A stretch of DNA of 10,623 nt from Syntrophomonadaceae bacterium (lineage in GTDB: Bacteria > Bacillota > Syntrophomonadia > Syntrophomonadales > Syntrophomonadaceae), in assembly GCA_035353375.1 (NCBI GenBank), contig DAOPZM010000018.1:26713-37335 (forward strand), in the 5' to 3' direction. Positions 999-8,469 of the stretch are shown here, one piece after another. The position numbers and the translations under genes were made by a program. Under the pieces are notes generated by a model. The model was not told the origin of the DNA, did not search any database, and saw only the letters and a list, made by a program, of their open reading frames with translations. Each line of letters starts with the position of its first letter. The first letter of the stretch is position 1.

Positions 999-1367
999 AT
1001 GATCAGAGTCCAGTCGATTGAAAAGTGTGACTGTGATGTAATTCATGAGGATATCGTTGCGCAGGTGAAAAATATAATGCCTGAGGAAGAGACTCTTTAT
1101 GATCTGGCTGAATTGTTTAAAGTTTTTGGCGATACAACCAGAATAAAGATTCTATGGGCATTGGATTCAGCTGAAATGTGTGTCTGTGACATTGCTTATT
1201 TGTTGAATATGACCCAATCAGCCATTTCACATCAATTAAGAGTACTGAAGCAGGCCAAGCTGGTTAAAAACCGCAGAGAAGGGAAAATAGTTTTCTACTC
1301 GCTGGATGATGAGCATATAAAGCAAATATTTGAACTGGGTTTAATTCATATTTCCGAGGAAGAATAA
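999..1367 (+). CDS. cadC: ArsR/SmtB-family metal-sensing transcriptional repressor, CadC-like (thiolate alpha3N site plus alpha5 site)
   Basis: 122-aa ORF with a GGGAGG Shine-Dalgarno sequence 8 nt upstream. The winged-helix core is LAELFKVFGDTTRIKILWAL...MCVCDIAYLLNMTQSAISHQLRVLKQAKLV. N-terminal Cys pair in EKCDCD plus CVC in helix alpha3 form the alpha3N Cd/Pb/Zn site. The C-terminal DEHIKQIFELGLIHISE fits the alpha5 pattern DxHx10Hx2E. It is translationally adjacent to a P1B ATPase. Confidence 0.88.
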   Translation: MIRVQSIEKCDCDVIHEDIVAQVKNIMPEEETLYDLAELFKVFGDTTRIKILWALDSAEMCVCDIAYLLNMTQSAISHQLRVLKQAKLVKNRREGKIVFYSLDDEHIKQIFELGLIHISEEE

Positions 1368-1384: not shown

Positions 1385-3307
1385 ATGTTGAAGCAGGATG
1401 AAGCAGCGGTTGCAGCCAGAATTGAAGCGAATAAAAACCCGGGCGACGAGGACAAATCAAATTTAAAAAAACAGGCAGTGATATTTTTATTCGGCGGAAC
1501 TTTATTTGCAGCCGGGGCGATTTTTACTTTCCCGGTTGGTCTGGAACTTACCGTATTCCTGCTGAGCTATTTGATTGTCGGCGGAAGCGTCATTTGGCGG
1601 GCAGTTAAAGGTATAGTCAGGGGGCAGGTGTTTAGTGAGCACTTCCTGATGAGTGTTGCTACGATTGGGGCTTTTTGTGTTGGGGCCTATTCTGAGGGGG
1701 CAGCTGTCATGCTGTTCTATCTGGTGGGTGAGATGTTTCAGGATATGGCGGTTGATCATTCCCGGAAATCGATTGGGATATTAATGGATATCAGACCGGA
1801 TTATGCCAATCTTAAAATTGGTGACGAAATAAAAAAGGTATCTCCTGAAGAAGTTTTATGCGGCGAAATAATAATCGTAAAGCCGGGCGAAAAGGTCCCC
1901 CTTGACGGCAGGGTCACAGAAGGAAAATCGATGGCCGATACATCTGCATTGACCGGCGAATCAGTCCCGCGCGCATTGGAACCCGGATGTGAGGTCTTAA
2001 GCGGATTTATAAATAATAATGGTGTTTTAACGGTTGAAGTGACTAAAACATACAGTGAATCAACTGTGGCCAGGATTTTGGATCTGGTTGAAAATGCCGG
2101 CAGCAGGAAAGCTCCCACCGAGGATTTTATAACAAAATTCGCCGGGTATTATACGCCGGTGGTGGTGTTTGGAGCGTTGGCACTGGCAATCATACCGCCT
2201 TTGGCAATCCCCGGGGCAGCTTTTTCTGACTGGATATACCGGTCCCTGATATTCCTGGTGATTTCTTGTCCCTGTGCATTAGTGATTTCCATTCCCCTGG
2301 GATTTTTCGGGGGGATCGGCGGAGCTTCCAAAAGAGGCATACTGGTAAAGGGCAGCAACTATCTGGAAGCTTTGAATAAAGTGGAGACAGTTGTTTTTGA
2401 CAAGACCGGCACATTAACCAAAGGTGTATTTAAAGTTACAGAAATAAATCCGCAAAATAATTATACCGGGGAAGAGCTCATCGAATACGCAGCTTATGCT
2501 GAGAGCTATTCCAACCACCCGATCGCGCTTTCAATCATAGAGGCATATAAGGCTGAACCAGATAAAAACCGGATTGAAAATTATGAAGAAATTGCCGGTC
2601 ATGGCATCAAGGTAACTGTCGACGGCCAAGAAGTTCTGGCCGGAAACAGCTGGCTGATGGCTGCTGAAAACATCAAATACAGCGAAGCTTGCGCGGCAGG
2701 GACAGTGATACATGTGGCAATAAACAAGGTGTATGCCGGTCATATTGTGGCAGCAGATGAAGTAAAGGAAGATGCTGCCCTGGCCATTAAAGAGCTTAAA
2801 GCCCTGGGGGTCAGGAAAACGGTAATGCTTACCGGAGATTTAAAAAGTATCGGCGACAGGGTCGGCCGGCAATTAGGCTTGGATGAGGTTTATGCTGAAT
2901 TACTGCCGGCTGACAAAGTCGATAAACTTGAAATACTGGAGAACCAAAAATCCCGTAAAGGGAAGGTGGCTTTCGTTGGTGACGGCATAAACGATGCCCC
3001 GGTTTTAGCCAGAGCGGATATCGGCATAGCCATGGGAGGACTTGGTTCGGATGCGGCGATTGAAGCTGCAGACATTGTAATTATGAACGATCAACCATCC
3101 AATATTGCAACTGCCATAAAAGTTGCCCGCCGAACCAGGAACATAGTATTGCAGAACATCGTATTTGCCCTGGGAGTTAAAGCTGCATTCCTGGTATTGG
3201 GCGGAGCAGGTCTGGCTACCATGTGGGAAGCAGTATTTGCGGATGTGGGGGTAGCATTGCTGGCGGTTTTTAATGCTATGAGGGTTATGTATACCAAAAG
3301 CATATAA
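1385..3307 (+). CDS. cadA: Heavy-metal-translocating P1B-2-type ATPase (Zn2+/Cd2+/Pb2+ exporter) lacking an N-terminal HMA metal-binding domain
   Basis: 640-aa ORF with a GGAGGA Shine-Dalgarno sequence 6 nt upstream. Motifs present: TGES (SALTGESVP), CPC in TM6 (ISCPCALVISIP), DKTGTLT, SNHP, GDGINDAP, and the TM7/TM8 signatures NIVFALGVK (Nx7K) and DVGVALLAVFN (DxGx7N). The N-terminus (MLKQDEAAVAARIEANKNPGDEDK...) has no CxxC motif or His-rich stretch. Confidence 0.92.
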   Translation: MLKQDEAAVAARIEANKNPGDEDKSNLKKQAVIFLFGGTLFAAGAIFTFPVGLELTVFLLSYLIVGGSVIWRAVKGIVRGQVFSEHFLMSVATIGAFCVGAYSEGAAVMLFYLVGEMFQDMAVDHSRKSIGILMDIRPDYANLKIGDEIKKVSPEEVLCGEIIIVKPGEKVPLDGRVTEGKSMADTSALTGESVPRALEPGCEVLSGFINNNGVLTVEVTKTYSESTVARILDLVENAGSRKAPTEDFITKFAGYYTPVVVFGALALAIIPPLAIPGAAFSDWIYRSLIFLVISCPCALVISIPLGFFGGIGGASKRGILVKGSNYLEALNKVETVVFDKTGTLTKGVFKVTEINPQNNYTGEELIEYAAYAESYSNHPIALSIIEAYKAEPDKNRIENYEEIAGHGIKVTVDGQEVLAGNSWLMAAENIKYSEACAAGTVIHVAINKVYAGHIVAADEVKEDAALAIKELKALGVRKTVMLTGDLKSIGDRVGRQLGLDEVYAELLPADKVDKLEILENQKSRKGKVAFVGDGINDAPVLARADIGIAMGGLGSDAAIEAADIVIMNDQPSNIATAIKVARRTRNIVLQNIVFALGVKAAFLVLGGAGLATMWEAVFADVGVALLAVFNAMRVMYTKSI

Positions 3308-3550: not shown

Positions 3551-4933
3551 TCAGATAAGATTGCGCCGTTTGGCTTCAAATTCCAATTCATCCCTGAAAT
3601 CGGGGTGGGCAACGCTGATTATATTTTTCACCCGCTGGCGGATAGACTGGCCCTTGATCTTGGCGGCACCGTACTCGGTTATGACATAATCAGCACATGA
3701 CCTGGGAGTAGTAATAATGCCCCCGGGTGTGATCTGTGGTGCAATTTTGGATATCATCTGGCCGCCGCCGCTTCTGGGAGTAGCAGTTGCAGTAGTGGCG
3801 ATAATCGACACCCCGCCTTTGGATTGGAATGCCCCGTCAACAAAATCAAGCTGTCCGCCCGGATGGGTATATTGTTTATAACCCATGGATTCCGAACAGA
3901 TCTGACCGGTCAGATCCACCTGCAGGCAGGCATTGATGGAGACCAGATTATCATTTTTGCCGATAATATACGGATTGTTAACAAAATTGACCGGGTAAAA
4001 CTCGATGCCGGGATTGTCATCTATCCAGTCGTAGAGTTTACGGGTGCCCATGGCGAAAGTAAAGATCGACCGGTAGGGCATAAAGGTCTTGCGCCGGTTG
4101 GTCACAACTTCGGCCTCCCACAAGTTGATCATAGTATCACAGGCCATTTCCGAATGGATACCGAGATCCTTGACATGAGTATCAAGAAATGCCTGGGCGA
4201 CTGCATTAGGTATGCTGCCTATCCCTAACTGAATGGTGGAACCGTCTTTGACAAATTCAGCGCAGCAGCGGCCGATAGTATCTTCTTCCGGAGTCATGGG
4301 GGCAGTATCAGGCAGAACCGCTAAATCCTGATCCTGCTCGACAATGGCGGTTATCTCGGAAATATGCAGGTAATTCATGCCCCGGCTCCGCGGCACCTGG
4401 TTATTGACCTGGGCCAGGACCATATAACGGTCATCCCCCTCGCGGCGTTTTTGAGCGGCATTTTTGGCTATCGCCAGAGTGGCATCAGCCCCAACACCCA
4501 GGCAAAAGTAGCCGTGTTTATCCATAGGAGTAACTAACACCATCGCTGTTTGCATAGGACGGAAGTTTTCATCGGTATAAATTTTTGGCAGTTCACAAAA
4601 GCGGTTGGGTGTCAGGGTAAATTCCCCGCTGACCACCAAATCGCGGCTAACCGAAGGATAGCCGCAGTCAACTCTGATATTGCTTTCCCGGCCCAGCTTG
4701 CGCCAGGTATTCTGCGGGTGGATATCGACGATGTGATTGATAGTTATATTTTCCACTTCCGGTTCCCGCGCTACCAATGCATCCACCAGTGCCAAAGGTA
4801 CAGGAACGGCTATTCCTATCCAGACCTCGGTATTGTTTTTTACCATTTTGGCAGCCTGCCCGGCTGACATTAACCTCTCCTTATACATTTCCTTTAAATT
4901 CAAAACTGTGCCCTCCTCGAAAAATTTCCACAT
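3551..4933 (-). CDS. CoA-transferase of the acetyl-CoA hydrolase/transferase family (4-hydroxybutyrate CoA-transferase / butyryl-CoA:acetate CoA-transferase-like)
   Basis: 460-aa ORF. YKERLMSAGQAAKMV resembles the YKEKLVTAE.A N-terminus of Cat2/AbfT-type enzymes. Also present: TIQLGIGSIPNAV, LGIHSEM, VSINACLQVDLTGQICSESMG (catalytic-Glu region), GGQLDFVDGA, and a C-terminal SVAHPDFRDELEFEAKRR. The start is ambiguous. The ATG at 4933 has its Shine-Dalgarno sequence abutting it. The in-frame ATG at 4888 (MYKERL) has a poor Shine-Dalgarno sequence. The ATG at 4870 (MSAGQ) follows AAGGAGAGG at ideal spacing. Confidence 0.85.
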   Translation of the reverse strand: MWKFFEEGTVLNLKEMYKERLMSAGQAAKMVKNNTEVWIGIAVPVPLALVDALVAREPEVENITINHIVDIHPQNTWRKLGRESNIRVDCGYPSVSRDLVVSGEFTLTPNRFCELPKIYTDENFRPMQTAMVLVTPMDKHGYFCLGVGADATLAIAKNAAQKRREGDDRYMVLAQVNNQVPRSRGMNYLHISEITAIVEQDQDLAVLPDTAPMTPEEDTIGRCCAEFVKDGSTIQLGIGSIPNAVAQAFLDTHVKDLGIHSEMACDTMINLWEAEVVTNRRKTFMPYRSIFTFAMGTRKLYDWIDDNPGIEFYPVNFVNNPYIIGKNDNLVSINACLQVDLTGQICSESMGYKQYTHPGGQLDFVDGAFQSKGGVSIIATTATATPRSGGGQMISKIAPQITPGGIITTPRSCADYVITEYGAAKIKGQSIRQRVKNIISVAHPDFRDELEFEAKRRNLI

Positions 4934-4971: not shown

Positions 4972-5279
4972 ATTCATATTATCAGTATCTAAATTATATA
5001 AAGTTCTAAATGTTTGCGGATAATCCTGCAAAACTATTCATTTTATGCTTCCAAAGGAATGATTTTGCAAACTTACGAATATTTAATATATTCGGTCAAT
5101 ACCCGGAACTATAGTTGCATGCCGGCCTGCCAACATTTCTTCTATGACGGTTATTTTTTGCTTGTTTGCTCAAATCAAATTGCATCCTCCTATTATATCT
5201 TAATTCCGAGGGATGACATTTTACCTGATGAGTTATACCATGACATTATTGCTGATTAACAAGAGCTGGGAAAAAATGC

Positions 5280-5309
5280 TTGCAAAAAAAAGTTAGCTTA
5301 TGTTATAAT
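5280..5309 (+). promoter_or_regulatory. Strong sigma-A-type promoter with extended -10
   Basis: TTGCAA (5280-5285), an 18-nt spacer, then TGtTATAAT (TG at 5301-5302, TATAAT at 5304-5309). No protein-coding gene follows it for ~950 nt. Confidence 0.65.
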
Positions 5310-5316
5310 ACATTTA

Positions 5317-5520
5317 GTCCGAAAGGATAAAAAAGATCTTAATGACCTGCCAGGGGAGCGTACAAGGGTTGCTTGACTGGCGTAAAAAGGAAACTAGGAT
5401 ATGTAGTCGGGCGTACCATAGTTGCTCGGTTACAAACTAGTGGTGGGTTCTCTTTAATGAGAACCTGATCATTAGAGAAAATTAACATCCCATCACTGAA
5501 AAGTGGTGGGATTTTTAATT
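5317..5520 (+). ncRNA. ~200-nt structured leader or small RNA with mutually exclusive antiterminator/terminator pairings; RNA class unassigned
   Basis: It starts at the predicted +1 of the 5280 promoter and ends at an intrinsic terminator. GTGGTGGG occurs twice (5440-5447 and 5503-5510), and both copies can pair with CCCATCAC (5489-5496). There is a perfect GGTTCTC/GAGAACC hairpin at 5446-5465. It contains an internal imperfect tandem duplication (GCGTAC..GTTGCT..AAACTAG appears twice). It shares the decamer TTAACATCCC with element 3 (5482-5491 vs 6014-6023). Confidence 0.5.
5487..5520 (+). terminator. Rho-independent terminator of leader 1
   Basis: A 10-bp stem ATCCCATCAC / GTGGTGGGAT (one G-U pair), loop TGAAAA, followed by TTTTTAATTT. 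Confidence 0.7.
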
Positions 5521-5749
5521 TGGAATCAGTAAAGAAGCGGACTTTTGACCATTTTATCAACTGCAGCAACAGCAGGACCATATGCTGGTAACCGCATTTC
5601 GCCCGGAGTTGACAGACGATTTAAGGATCCATAAGTATTTCCCGGGTATGGGCTGAAGTGTTCAAAATATCCAAAATTAAAAATATTGAAACTTTTTATA
5701 TTATGCAGGAACAAAATGTATACTTGTCGAAAAAGCTTATAATAAAAAA

Positions 5750-5850
5750 TATGCTCCGAGCCTTTTGACCTAAAGTTTTTTAGCTACGGTTTTCAGGCCG
5801 TCAGGGTGCATTCGGAAACGGGTGTGCCTCCCATTGTGGAAAGGAGAAGC
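5750..5850 (+). promoter_or_regulatory. Moco (molybdenum/tungsten cofactor) riboswitch aptamer, Moco RNA motif
   Basis: The three conserved strings I associate with the Moco RNA motif occur in the correct order: CUCCGAGCC (5754-5762), GCCUCCC (5826-5832) and GGAAAGG (5838-5844). A hairpin capped by a GAAA tetraloop immediately precedes GCCUCCC (CATTCG-GAAA-CGGGTG, 5809-5824). CCUUUU (5761-5766) can pair with GAAAGG (5839-5844). A TATAAT -10 box lies at 5738-5743, with a poor -35. Confidence 0.68.
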
Positions 5851-5866
5851 TGTATCAGGCCTGATT

Positions 5867-5904: not shown

Positions 5905-5944
5905 ATCCGGCCATTGATGTAATATAAATAAAAATTTAATTTGT

Positions 5945-6040
5945 TGTTTCGAGTCTTTCTTCCTGCAGCCATCCTGGTATGGAAAAAGACCAATGTGCTA
6001 ACCCGGAAACAGGTTAACATCCCGCTTGGAAAGGAGCAAT
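5945..6040 (+). promoter_or_regulatory. Second, more divergent Moco-riboswitch-like aptamer
   Basis: Its layout is colinear with element 2. It has UUUCGAGUC (5947-5955) where element 2 has CUCCGAGCC. It has a hairpin with a GAAA tetraloop, TAACCCG-GAAA-CAGGTTA (6000-6017). This is followed by ACAUCCC (6017-6023), a 4-nt linker, and GGAAAGGAG (6028-6036). Confidence 0.42.
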
Positions 6041-6058
6041 TTTATTTAAATATTTTTC

Positions 6059-6258: not shown

Positions 6259-8469
6259 ATGCATAGGATGACGAAAAAATTATCAGGAATTTTTTTATTA
6301 ACGATGCTGGTATTATTGCCGGTCTTATGGGGCTCTGATGAAGCAAGCGCAGCAAGTACCAGCCTTACGGTTACAAAGCTTGCTTCTGATGGTGAGACTG
6401 TCATCGCCGAGAGAACTGTTGATTATGAGTGGCTCATGGATCCTGACAATATAAGAGTAATGGGGGACGGAAATACCCATTATTATCACCAGGGACCGGT
6501 ATTTATCGACGACCCTGATGAACAGGCCGAAGAACAGCTGCGCTGGAATCCGGAGGAAGATACAAACGTAGAGGACAAGGATATGGGAGCTGTAATGGGT
6601 ACCAATGTTGAAGATCTCTGCGAGCTGGTCGGAGGTATGTCGCGCGGTGAAACATTACAGATTAAAGCCAGTGACGGTCTTAAAAAAATGTTTGATTATG
6701 AAAATGTGTACGGCTATTCCAGCAAGGAAGGGCCTATGGTTGTCTGCTGGTATAAAGACGGCATGTACCCGGACACCGGATATAGCGACGGCATGCGGCT
6801 GGTCTGGTTTGCCGATGATTCCACCAACCCTTGGGGAATCAACGTTTTCGGCAATTGGGACTGGCACGAAGCTGCTGATTCTGAATACTGGTATTATTAT
6901 CGCAGCGGCGGTGAAAGTTATCCAACTACCACCGGACTTTCGATACAAAATGTTGCTTATTTGACCATTTACAGCAATGAAGACCCGCCTAAAGAACCGG
7001 AAGCTGATTTTAAAGCGGACAAAACCTCCGGTTATGCACCTCTTTCCGTCAAATTTACTGACAAGTCTGCTAATTCTCCCAGTGAATATGAATGGGACTT
7101 TGATAATGACGGTAAGGTAGATTCTACCGATCAAAACCCGAGCTTTAAATACAGTGAACCGGGAGTCTATACAGTCTGTCTTACTGCAGCCAATAGTATC
7201 GGCAGCGACGAGATGGTTAAGGCCGATTACATTACAGTCAGGGAAAAACCGTCAACCAAGACCCTGTTCAATGGCACGGTGGATTTGACATCAGGAAAAA
7301 CTATAAACGTGACGGCCTATAACTCAAATTCAAAATATGAGGTGAGTGAGACAACGACCCTGGGTGCGCTTGCAGCAGCAGCCGATGAGAAAAACTTCGA
7401 TTATGAAGTTACGGATAAAAAATATTCACAGTCGGGCGTGCTTCTCCTGGATGAGATCGAGAGTTATATAAGCGATGATCCCGGGGACTGGTATGTTTAT
7501 ATCAATGATGTTTATAAAGACAGCTACAATAAAAAATCTCACGCTTTAAACCTGCTTGAACTTAAAGATGGTGACGAAGTTGATTTCTACTATGCAGAGG
7601 ATATTAACGATCCGGATGATATTGATGATGTTGAGTATTGGGCATCAGCCGCAATAAAAATTGCTGTGTCGATCAGTGAGGCTGCCAGCAAGCCGGTTGC
7701 AGCTTTTACTGCCGCCCCTGTCAATGGTACGGAACCTCTGACAGTCAGTTTTATCAACCAGTCTACCGGTACTGGACCGTTAACTTATGAATGGGATTTT
7801 GACAATGACGGGCTGGCAGACTCCACTGACCGTAATCCGGAATATATTTATAAGACTGCCGGGACTTACACGGTCAAACTGACAGTAACTAATGAAGCCG
7901 GCAGCGATGAGGAAATCAAGACGGGCTATATTACGGCCAAAGCTTCGGATATAGCTGCATTATATGACATTGCCGGACACTGGGCCCAGGGGAGTATAGA
8001 AAGTCTGTTGGCCTCAGGAGCTGTCAGCGGCTATCCTGACAATAGCTTCAGGCCGGATGCGACAATTACCCGGGGCGAGTTTGTCACTATCCTGGTAAAA
8101 GCTTTCAAACTCGAACCTGGGACCGGAAAATTATTCACAGATACGACCGGCCACTGGGCCAAAGACTATATTTCTGCTGCCGCAGCGCTGGGGATTGTAA
8201 ATGGTTACGATGTAAATTGCTTTGGCCCCGATGACCTGATCACCCGGGAACAGATGGCAGTGATGATTATCAAAGCGCTGGATATCGGACTGATACCCGG
8301 TGACCCTGCATTTTCCGACCAGACCAGCATCTCTGACTGGGCAAAAAGTTCAGTAAAAACGGCCGGCGAGGAAGGGATTTTATCGGGGTATCCGGATAAC
8401 ACCTTCCGTCCGCAGGGTAATGCAACCAGGGCAGAGGCGGTGATGGTAATTGCAAAGGCTTTGGAATAA
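6259..8469 (+). CDS. Sec-exported, SLH-anchored multidomain cell-surface protein. Domain order: signal peptide, ~210-aa N-terminal domain (sulfite-oxidase-family-like pattern), PKD, DUF4430-like, PKD, 3x SLH.
   Basis: 736-aa ORF with an AGGAGG Shine-Dalgarno sequence 8 nt upstream. Domains by nucleotide range:
- Signal peptide: MHRMTKKLSGIFLLTMLVLLPVLWGSDEASA, with no twin-arginine motif.
- N-terminal domain: ~6355-6990.
- PKD 1: ~7000-7240 (PLSVKFTDKS...WDFDNDGKVDS...NPSFKYSEPGVYTVCLTAANSIGSDE).
- DUF4430-like: ~7261-7600 (TTLGAL...GDWYVYINDV...LKDGDEVDFYYAE).
- PKD 2: ~7693-7940.
- Three SLH repeats: ~7966-8466 (DIAGHWAQ..., FTDTTGHWAKDYI..., FSDQTSISDWAKSSV...GYPDNTFRPQGNATRAEA). Confidence 0.9.
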   Translation: MHRMTKKLSGIFLLTMLVLLPVLWGSDEASAASTSLTVTKLASDGETVIAERTVDYEWLMDPDNIRVMGDGNTHYYHQGPVFIDDPDEQAEEQLRWNPEEDTNVEDKDMGAVMGTNVEDLCELVGGMSRGETLQIKASDGLKKMFDYENVYGYSSKEGPMVVCWYKDGMYPDTGYSDGMRLVWFADDSTNPWGINVFGNWDWHEAADSEYWYYYRSGGESYPTTTGLSIQNVAYLTIYSNEDPPKEPEADFKADKTSGYAPLSVKFTDKSANSPSEYEWDFDNDGKVDSTDQNPSFKYSEPGVYTVCLTAANSIGSDEMVKADYITVREKPSTKTLFNGTVDLTSGKTINVTAYNSNSKYEVSETTTLGALAAAADEKNFDYEVTDKKYSQSGVLLLDEIESYISDDPGDWYVYINDVYKDSYNKKSHALNLLELKDGDEVDFYYAEDINDPDDIDDVEYWASAAIKIAVSISEAASKPVAAFTAAPVNGTEPLTVSFINQSTGTGPLTYEWDFDNDGLADSTDRNPEYIYKTAGTYTVKLTVTNEAGSDEEIKTGYITAKASDIAALYDIAGHWAQGSIESLLASGAVSGYPDNSFRPDATITRGEFVTILVKAFKLEPGTGKLFTDTTGHWAKDYISAAAALGIVNGYDVNCFGPDDLITREQMAVMIIKALDIGLIPGDPAFSDQTSISDWAKSSVKTAGEEGILSGYPDNTFRPQGNATRAEAVMVIAKALE

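Follow-up and report, generated by a model that had tools for sequence, protein, structure and literature searches.

Among the closest described systems are small RNAs that titrate or scaffold proteins, namely CsrB/RsmZ, which act on CsrA, and EutX/Rli55 with its dual ANTAR-binding hairpins; these are noncoding RNAs that have their own promoter and terminator, carry a repeated hairpin module and conserve this module rather than a pairing seed. The same properties are found in an RNA element located in a 10,623-nucleotide stretch of DNA from a Syntrophomonadaceae bacterium (contig DAOPZM010000018.1 of assembly GCA_035353375.1; the whole stretch is referred to as the window), in which two neighboring hairpins, P2 and P3, carry a common module at their apices (H1 and H2, respectively; Table 1). 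In contrast to CsrB/RsmZ and EutX/Rli55, the element has two modules only, contains neither GGA loop motifs nor A..G hexaloops, varies in its loops but keeps an invariant helix that contains a G·U pair and a bulged U, and has no linked partner protein; no such gene was found in any of the loci. A CsrA sponge of the CsrB/RsmZ type was rejected because the loops of H1 and H2 differ in every homologue and no GGA recurs in them.

T-box and metabolite riboswitch leaders share with the element the order of promoter, structured RNA and terminator, a gene that directly follows in two relatives and, in the window, a sequence competing for the 5′ arm of the terminator. Unlike these leaders, the element has no Rfam match, its competing pairing is not conserved and its downstream genes are unrelated. 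The T-box leader (RF00230) in particular gave no match at E<10, and AGUGGUGGG is only loosely similar to AGGGUGG and is not conserved. The neighboring Moco riboswitches (RF01055) lie in the same intergenic region and on the same strand, and each ends in a terminator, but the element has no score with their model, no Moco core and a different helix plan. Guanidine-II (mini-ykkC) and other tandem-hairpin aptamers also place two similar hairpins side by side. Guanidine-II conserves its ACGR loops while its stems vary, whereas the twin-hairpin RNA does the reverse; this class was discarded, as the loops (AAGG and CAUA in the window) are variable and are not ACGR, and no Rfam match was obtained. 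HK022 put and EAR may also be likened to the element as twin-hairpin RNAs upstream of terminators, although there is no match in sequence or structure and the gene contexts are unlike those of put or EAR.

Table 1. Features of the window in and around the twin-hairpin RNA
Feature	Position	Strand	Details
ArsR regulator	999-1367	+	
P-type ATPase	1385-3307	+	
CoA-transferase	3551-4933	-	
Sigma-A type promoter	5280-5309	+	-35 TTGCAA 5280-5285, 18-nt spacer, extended -10 TGtTATAAT 5301-5309 (TG 5301-5302, TATAAT 5304-5309)
Hairpin P1	5317-5328	+	GUCC-GAAA-GGAU; MFE helices, alignment read by eye
Long hairpin P2	5336-5400	+	same fold in 9/9 sequences
P2, outer helices	5336-5348/5388-5400	+	
P2, helix GCCAG/CUGGC	5349-5353/5377-5381	+	
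P2, 2x2 internal loop GG/GA	5354-5355/5375-5376	+	invariant, below the apex
P2, apical module H1	5356-5374	+	GAGCG-U-AC[AAGG]GU-UGCUU
Twin motif, first copy	5358-5373	+	GCGTAC-N4-GTTGCT
Hairpin P3 (module H2)	5402-5434	+	UGUAGUCGGGCG-U-AC[CAUA]GU-UGCUCGGUUACA
Twin motif, second copy	5411-5426	+	GCGTAC-N4-GTTGCT
Hairpin P4	5437-5475	+	CUAGUGGU GGGUUCUC [UUUAAU] GAGAACCU g AUCAUUAG
Intrinsic terminator	5487-5516	+	stem 5487-5497/5502-5512, GAAA loop, U tract 5512-5516
pdxT relic, last 30 codons	5561-5650	+	frame 2; 60% identical to PdxT of L003 by tblastn (E=1e-8)
Moco riboswitch (RF01055) 1	5742-5862	+	to 5898 with terminator; Rfam, 80 bits
Moco riboswitch (RF01055) 2	5935-6052	+	to 6084 with terminator; Rfam, 50 bits
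SLH/PKD surface protein	6259-8469	+	

The element lies in a 1.3 kb intergenic region between the genes for the CoA-transferase and the SLH/PKD protein, upstream of the Moco riboswitches. The CoA-transferase, an acetyl-CoA hydrolase/transferase, is 93% identical to a protein of Syntrophomonas sp. UBA1368, and the synteny of the encoded proteins assigns the window to Syntrophomonas/Syntrophomonadaceae. An exact copy of the window is present in JGI metagenome contig Ga0116247_10000131 (145 kb), and a second sample differs by two mismatches, none of them in the element. An SLH surface protein is an unusual gene class for a Moco riboswitch. In relatives L067 and L070, one Moco riboswitch stands ahead of SLH proteins of 1127–1267 amino acids; the tandem arrangement in the window suggests a sharper response. 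On the CoA-transferase side of the element, the direct repeat ATGACATT..TGAT occurs at 5213–5229 and 5240–5256, spaced 27 nt. On the minus strand the repeats read as ATGTCA −35-like boxes, giving two promoter-like sites that face the CoA-transferase gene, and may represent promoters in tandem or a site bound by a regulator.

The initial annotation had described a near-consensus extended −10 promoter that is followed by no open reading frame and instead by a structured RNA of ∼200 nt with a good intrinsic terminator, and each of these features was borne out. The promoter matches the consensus at 10 of 12 positions in addition to the TG and is the top promoter-like site between 4800 and 6400, although sites of such quality are not rare by themselves (12 seen versus 5.6 expected). 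When the 5′ flanks of eight homologues are aligned, the letters of the extended −10 element (TG-TA---T) are the sole invariant columns. The homologues carry −35-like TTKMMA boxes 17–18 nt upstream of the −10, and in L064 the matching promoter was picked up by the scan. Judged from the promoter, transcription would start at ∼5316–5317. No frame is open throughout the element in the nine homologues, and a Pfam search of the local open reading frames gave no match.

At the other end of the element, the terminator stem of the window (11 bp, 5487–5512) has a stability of −17 kcal/mol and runs into five T (T5512–T5516); the 3′ end of the RNA is expected at about 5516–5521. All nine sequences have a terminator hairpin, with stabilities between −15 and −21 kcal/mol and U4–5 directly after the stem. 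The base of the stem, AUCCC/GGGAU, is fixed, and its inner pairs are swapped by compensatory changes between lineages (A-U/U-G/C-G/A-U versus U-A/C-G/U-A/G-C versus G-C/C-G/U-A/G-C). On another Syntrophomonadaceae contig (L076, 7960–8050, plus strand), an unrelated terminator has the same AUAUCCCAUC...GGGAUUUUU frame. AUCCC/GGGAU may therefore be a habit of terminators in this lineage and not a feature of the RNA.

The 209 nt from promoter to terminator on the plus strand fold to −76.4 kcal/mol (z = −7.6), and none of 200 shuffled sequences was as stable. The minus strand of the element reaches only −54.8 kcal/mol; in every homologue the plus strand is the more stable by 9–27 kcal/mol, with 5–12 G·U pairs. 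Taken together, the fold, the strand bias, the closed reading frames and the separate promoter and terminator indicate a unit that is RNA-level, strand specific, and independently promoted and terminated. We infer from these features that the element is transcribed; the predicted transcript would be ∼200 nt long and would run on the plus strand from ∼5316 to ∼5516–5521, from its own constitutive-type sigma-A promoter to its own terminator. A 6S RNA was rejected as a candidate: the four hairpins are separate, the ends are unpaired, there is no rod-like fold and an Rfam 6S match is absent.

The initial annotation could not match the upstream ∼120 nt to the cores of T-box, cobalamin, TPP, ZTP, SAM, purine, c-di-GMP or ykkC RNAs. 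When the window and two distant homologues were compared with Rfam 15, both with the gathering thresholds and with a cutoff of E<10, the core was left unmatched. Sub-threshold matches over P4 and the terminator (psRNA14, RcsR1, His_leader, PyrR and others) were judged to be junk. A literature search turned up no description of this RNA.

Homologues were sought by synteny and by pattern. Among 185,579 species genomes, a synteny search through the neighboring CoA-transferase led to 38 loci, two of which carry the RNA: L003, from Syntrophomonas sp. UBA1368 (85% identical), and L004, from a Syntrophomonadaceae MAG. At the other 36 loci, the RNA is missing near the CoA-transferase orthologue. A DNA pattern of the twin motif, derived from the window, L003 and L004, was then scanned against a metagenome collection and returned 33 matches; a profile search confirmed 13 of these as homologues, and the remainder were GC-rich coding repeats. 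Similar patterns in viral contigs were chance or coding matches only, and the plasmid and phage collections held no copy of the RNA. Weak covariance-model matches in L006, L009 and L076 proved on inspection to be a histidine-kinase coding region and plain terminators.

The searches yielded nine distinct sequences (the window, L003, L004, L050, L064, L070, L073, L074 and L089) with pairwise identities of 58%–86%. The eight further homologues that the searches added come from Syntrophomonadaceae genomes and digester metagenomes. All have the promoter, P2, P3 and the terminator, and all but one have P4. The homologues that can be placed belong to the Syntrophomonadaceae: the genes beside L074 and L089 encode proteins whose names assign them to Syntrophomonadaceae MAGs, and L064 shares its assembly (FZPS01, GCA_900198705.1) with L080, which has an acyl-CoA ligase orthologue of 80% identity. 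The family has no Rfam entry, and to date it has been observed in Syntrophomonadaceae alone.

The RNA is not tied to a site in the genome. It is not near orthologues of the acyl-CoA ligase, the upstream gene, at 74%–88% identity. It is likewise missing from the sites examined ahead of the DUF2225 gene in S. wolfei, S. curvata and S. palmitatica, which are syntenic; among the DUF2225 orthologues of these three species and two MAGs, only the closest, L089, has the RNA. Its absence from several syntenic sites indicates that its position is fluid.

Each homologue, folded singly, gives P2, P3, P4 where present, and the terminator (nine of nine). In the model-based alignment, 95.4% of the pair cells hold standard pairs, as compared to 31%–46% when the partners are slid against each other. 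Compensatory changes occur at nine pairs of the alignment, and the covariation score of 0.231 (0.155 for shuffled alignments) was reached by none of 500 shuffles, in a set of only nine sequences from few lineages whose signal partly reflects two clades. Covariation for a pseudoknot outside the model helices was noisy, with eight sequences in two clades only. The changes are unevenly distributed over the fold. In helix 1 of P2, 96% of the cells are paired and 5 of the 13 pairs show compensatory changes. P4 is variable in sequence and covaries (helices 3 and 4). P3 (31 nt) is nearly unchanged across the family while the outer helices of P2, P4 and the terminator are rewritten: eight of its 14 pairs never vary, five vary on one side and one varies on both. 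The small hairpin P1 has another sequence in some homologues and is missing from others; it may serve as a 5′ stabilizer. A kink-turn reading of the GG/GA loop in P2 was rejected, since the pair 5357/5373 covaries between A-U and G-C and thereby sets the Watson-Crick register.

A natural variant that lacks P4 is found in L004 (147–292, minus strand) and L067 (6540–6685, minus strand), in which P3 is joined to the terminator by a 16-nt A-rich linker. As defined by this variant, P2, P3 and the terminator would constitute the minimal form of the RNA.

The most conserved part of the element is the motif GCGUAC-N4/5-GUUGC at the apices of both P2 and P3. It folds as a helix that includes a G·U pair and a bulged U, in the order G-C, C-G, G·U, bulged U, A-U and C-G, closed by a variable loop. 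The most conserved letters of the two apices can be written as G(R)GCG-U-AC-[loop]-GU-UGC(Y). The internal imperfect duplication pointed out in the initial annotation corresponds to the two copies of this motif in the window, where 0.03 such pairs are expected by chance. The motif is retained in both hairpins of all eight aligned homologues, and the loops differ in each. The sole exception to the motif that was observed is H1 of L089 (2001–2190, plus strand), which reads GGUGC in place of GUUGC, breaking the A-U pair beside the loop. Single-stranded linkers and loops drift between homologues, and the invariant letters sit in helices. A comparison of H1 and H2 with rRNA, confined to the E. coli rrnH operon, revealed mimicry no better than that of shuffled queries.

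On balance, the element is best explained as a new family of stand-alone small RNA that probably binds protein via its twin hairpins, a reading in which we place moderate confidence. A stand-alone small RNA was the third of the options offered by the initial annotation, whose interpretation is in this sense partly supported; the RNA has its own promoter and terminator, and its neighbors vary. Since conservation is concentrated in the stems, loops and linkers drift and the motif is present in two copies, we infer that the RNA docks a protein. P2 and P3, with the common invariant helix motif at their apices, would be the functional core. Acting in trans, the RNA may offer a bipartite docking site to a protein, plausibly a dimer, and so titrate or scaffold it; seed pairing with mRNAs would not be involved. 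P4 and the terminator would then provide structure and termination at the 3′ end. Leakage past the terminator may, in some genomes, also feed the next gene.

In the main alternative, the RNA attenuates transcription in cis, as a new riboswitch or as a protein-dependent leader; the twin hairpins would sense a ligand or bind a regulator and so set the read-through into the next gene. The ancestral target would have been the HhH-GPD glycosylase, with pdxS/pdxT in one lineage, and the window would contain a leader orphaned by deletion. The layout of promoter, structured leader and terminator fits this explanation, and so do the genes that follow in two relatives. In L003 the terminator is followed by genes for the HhH-GPD glycosylase, a kinase-like protein, pdxS and pdxT, and in L070 by the glycosylase, a Moco riboswitch and an SLH protein. 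In both, the glycosylase gene has a good RBS, starts 35–45 nt past the terminator and has no recognizable promoter; read-through must therefore occur, and at these two loci the RNA is physically a 5′ leader. The pdxT relic in the window, 75% identical in nucleotides to the 3′ end of pdxT in L003, is also in favor, as it indicates that the lineage of the window formerly had the gene order of L003 and lost the block of glycosylase, kinase-like gene, pdxS and pdxT by deletion.

The same relic, however, argues against attenuation, since the promoter, all helices and the terminator of the window RNA are intact after the loss of the operon. In addition, the genes downstream of the RNA are functionally unrelated, and several are 120–450 nt away, with promoter-like sites or a further riboswitch in between. 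With the pdxT relic included, six differing downstream contexts were found. In L004 and L067 a Moco riboswitch and a 1267-aa SLH protein follow after ∼175 nt, and in L050 a 548-aa lipoprotein follows after 270 nt. L064 has a small LysM ORF and then a convergent M23 peptidase, and L073, L074 and L089 have a cNMP-binding DUF2225 protein after ∼130 nt with a promoter-like site. The glycosylase is the only gene that recurs, in two of the nine loci, which are closely related to each other. The lack of a common function among the genes downstream of the RNA in different genomes speaks against a metabolite riboswitch. In L064, an ordinary and unrelated TPP riboswitch (6692–6797, plus strand) lies 4 kb upstream of the RNA homologue, before a block of four genes.

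A further sign of a switch was seen in the window itself. The initial annotation had proposed that the 5′ arm of the terminator can pair with an upstream copy of its 3′ arm, in the manner of an antiterminator. Both copies of the 3′ arm and the 5′ arm are indeed present (GTGGTGGG at 5440–5447 and 5503–5510, CCCATCAC at 5489–5496), with the upstream GUGGUGGG copy (5440–5447) contained in the 5′ arm of P4. The alternative duplex of the P4 and terminator 5′ arms has a stability of −14.3 kcal/mol and is part of the MFE structure of the nascent RNA, where its gain over keeping P4 is only 2.7 kcal/mol. The pairing is not conserved. The upstream copy is perfect in the window only, and among the nine sequences the nascent RNA favors the alternative pairing in the window only. 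In L003, L050 and L070 the copy has a mismatch and the nascent fold keeps P4, leaving the alternative pairing unused. In L064, L073, L074 and L089 the copy is absent, and the most favorable alternatives are instead unrelated G-runs or a local helix of 5 bp. In L004 the hairpin that bears the copy, P4, is missing altogether, and the homologues revealed no further conserved structure in competition with the terminator. The switch logic that headed the initial annotation thus finds no support, and the case carries a caution: a terminator/antiterminator pair that was convincing in a single sequence vanished when homologues were compared.

Given this evidence, an attenuator is an unlikely explanation of the family. 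The more specific proposal that the twin hairpins are the aptamer of an undescribed attenuator class, in which a small molecule, a metal ion or a dimeric regulator tunes read-through, is very doubtful. If true, the ancestral order of glycosylase, kinase-like gene, pdxS and pdxT would point to a DNA-damage or vitamin B6 signal; we know of no vitamin B6 riboswitch.

The stand-alone RNA that we prefer could also act by base pairing, as a trans-acting small RNA with a seed exposed to mRNAs. Its independent promoter and terminator, its size, which is typical of small RNAs, the terminator hairpin with its U tail and a location independent of its neighbors would all suit such a role. A seed is nevertheless hard to place, as the linkers and all loops vary while the invariant letters are locked in helices, and no conserved unpaired stretch, C-rich or other, is visible in the homologues. 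Base pairing is accordingly rather improbable as the mode of action. Processive antitermination of the put/EAR kind, in which the two hairpins would bind RNA polymerase and carry it past the following and later terminators, is highly improbable. The two conserved hairpins stand just upstream of a terminator, and some genomes have same-strand genes or terminator-containing riboswitches downstream, but there is no similarity to catalogued antitermination RNAs, the long downstream gene of L064 is convergent, and a strong terminator kept by compensatory changes is hard to square with constitutive bypass.

A degenerate or variant member of the Moco family, which the initial annotation had considered in view of its internal duplication and of a sequence shared with a Moco-like element, and which would also suit the location of the RNA in one intergenic region with two bona fide Moco riboswitches, is effectively refuted: no Moco match was obtained at E<10 over 5150–5760 or in the homologues (the gathering threshold is 36 bits), the architecture differs, most homologues are not beside Moco riboswitches, and the 10-mer TTAACATCCC, although present at both sites (5482–5491 and 6014–6023), is at chance level for a post hoc find (in simulations, 17% of elements had a 10-mer in common with the 784 nt that follow) and is not conserved in the homologues.

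Syntrophomonadaceae carry out the rate-limiting step of fatty-acid oxidation in anaerobic digesters and are hard to grow. To our knowledge, no regulatory RNA has been characterized in this family. The interest of the twin-hairpin RNA rests on this host lineage, on how strongly the RNA is structured and on the unusual invariant helix motif that it carries twice. With the covariance model, genomes and metatranscriptomes could be annotated for the RNA family, and the twin invariant helix could serve as a handle with which to fish the partner of the RNA from cell extracts.
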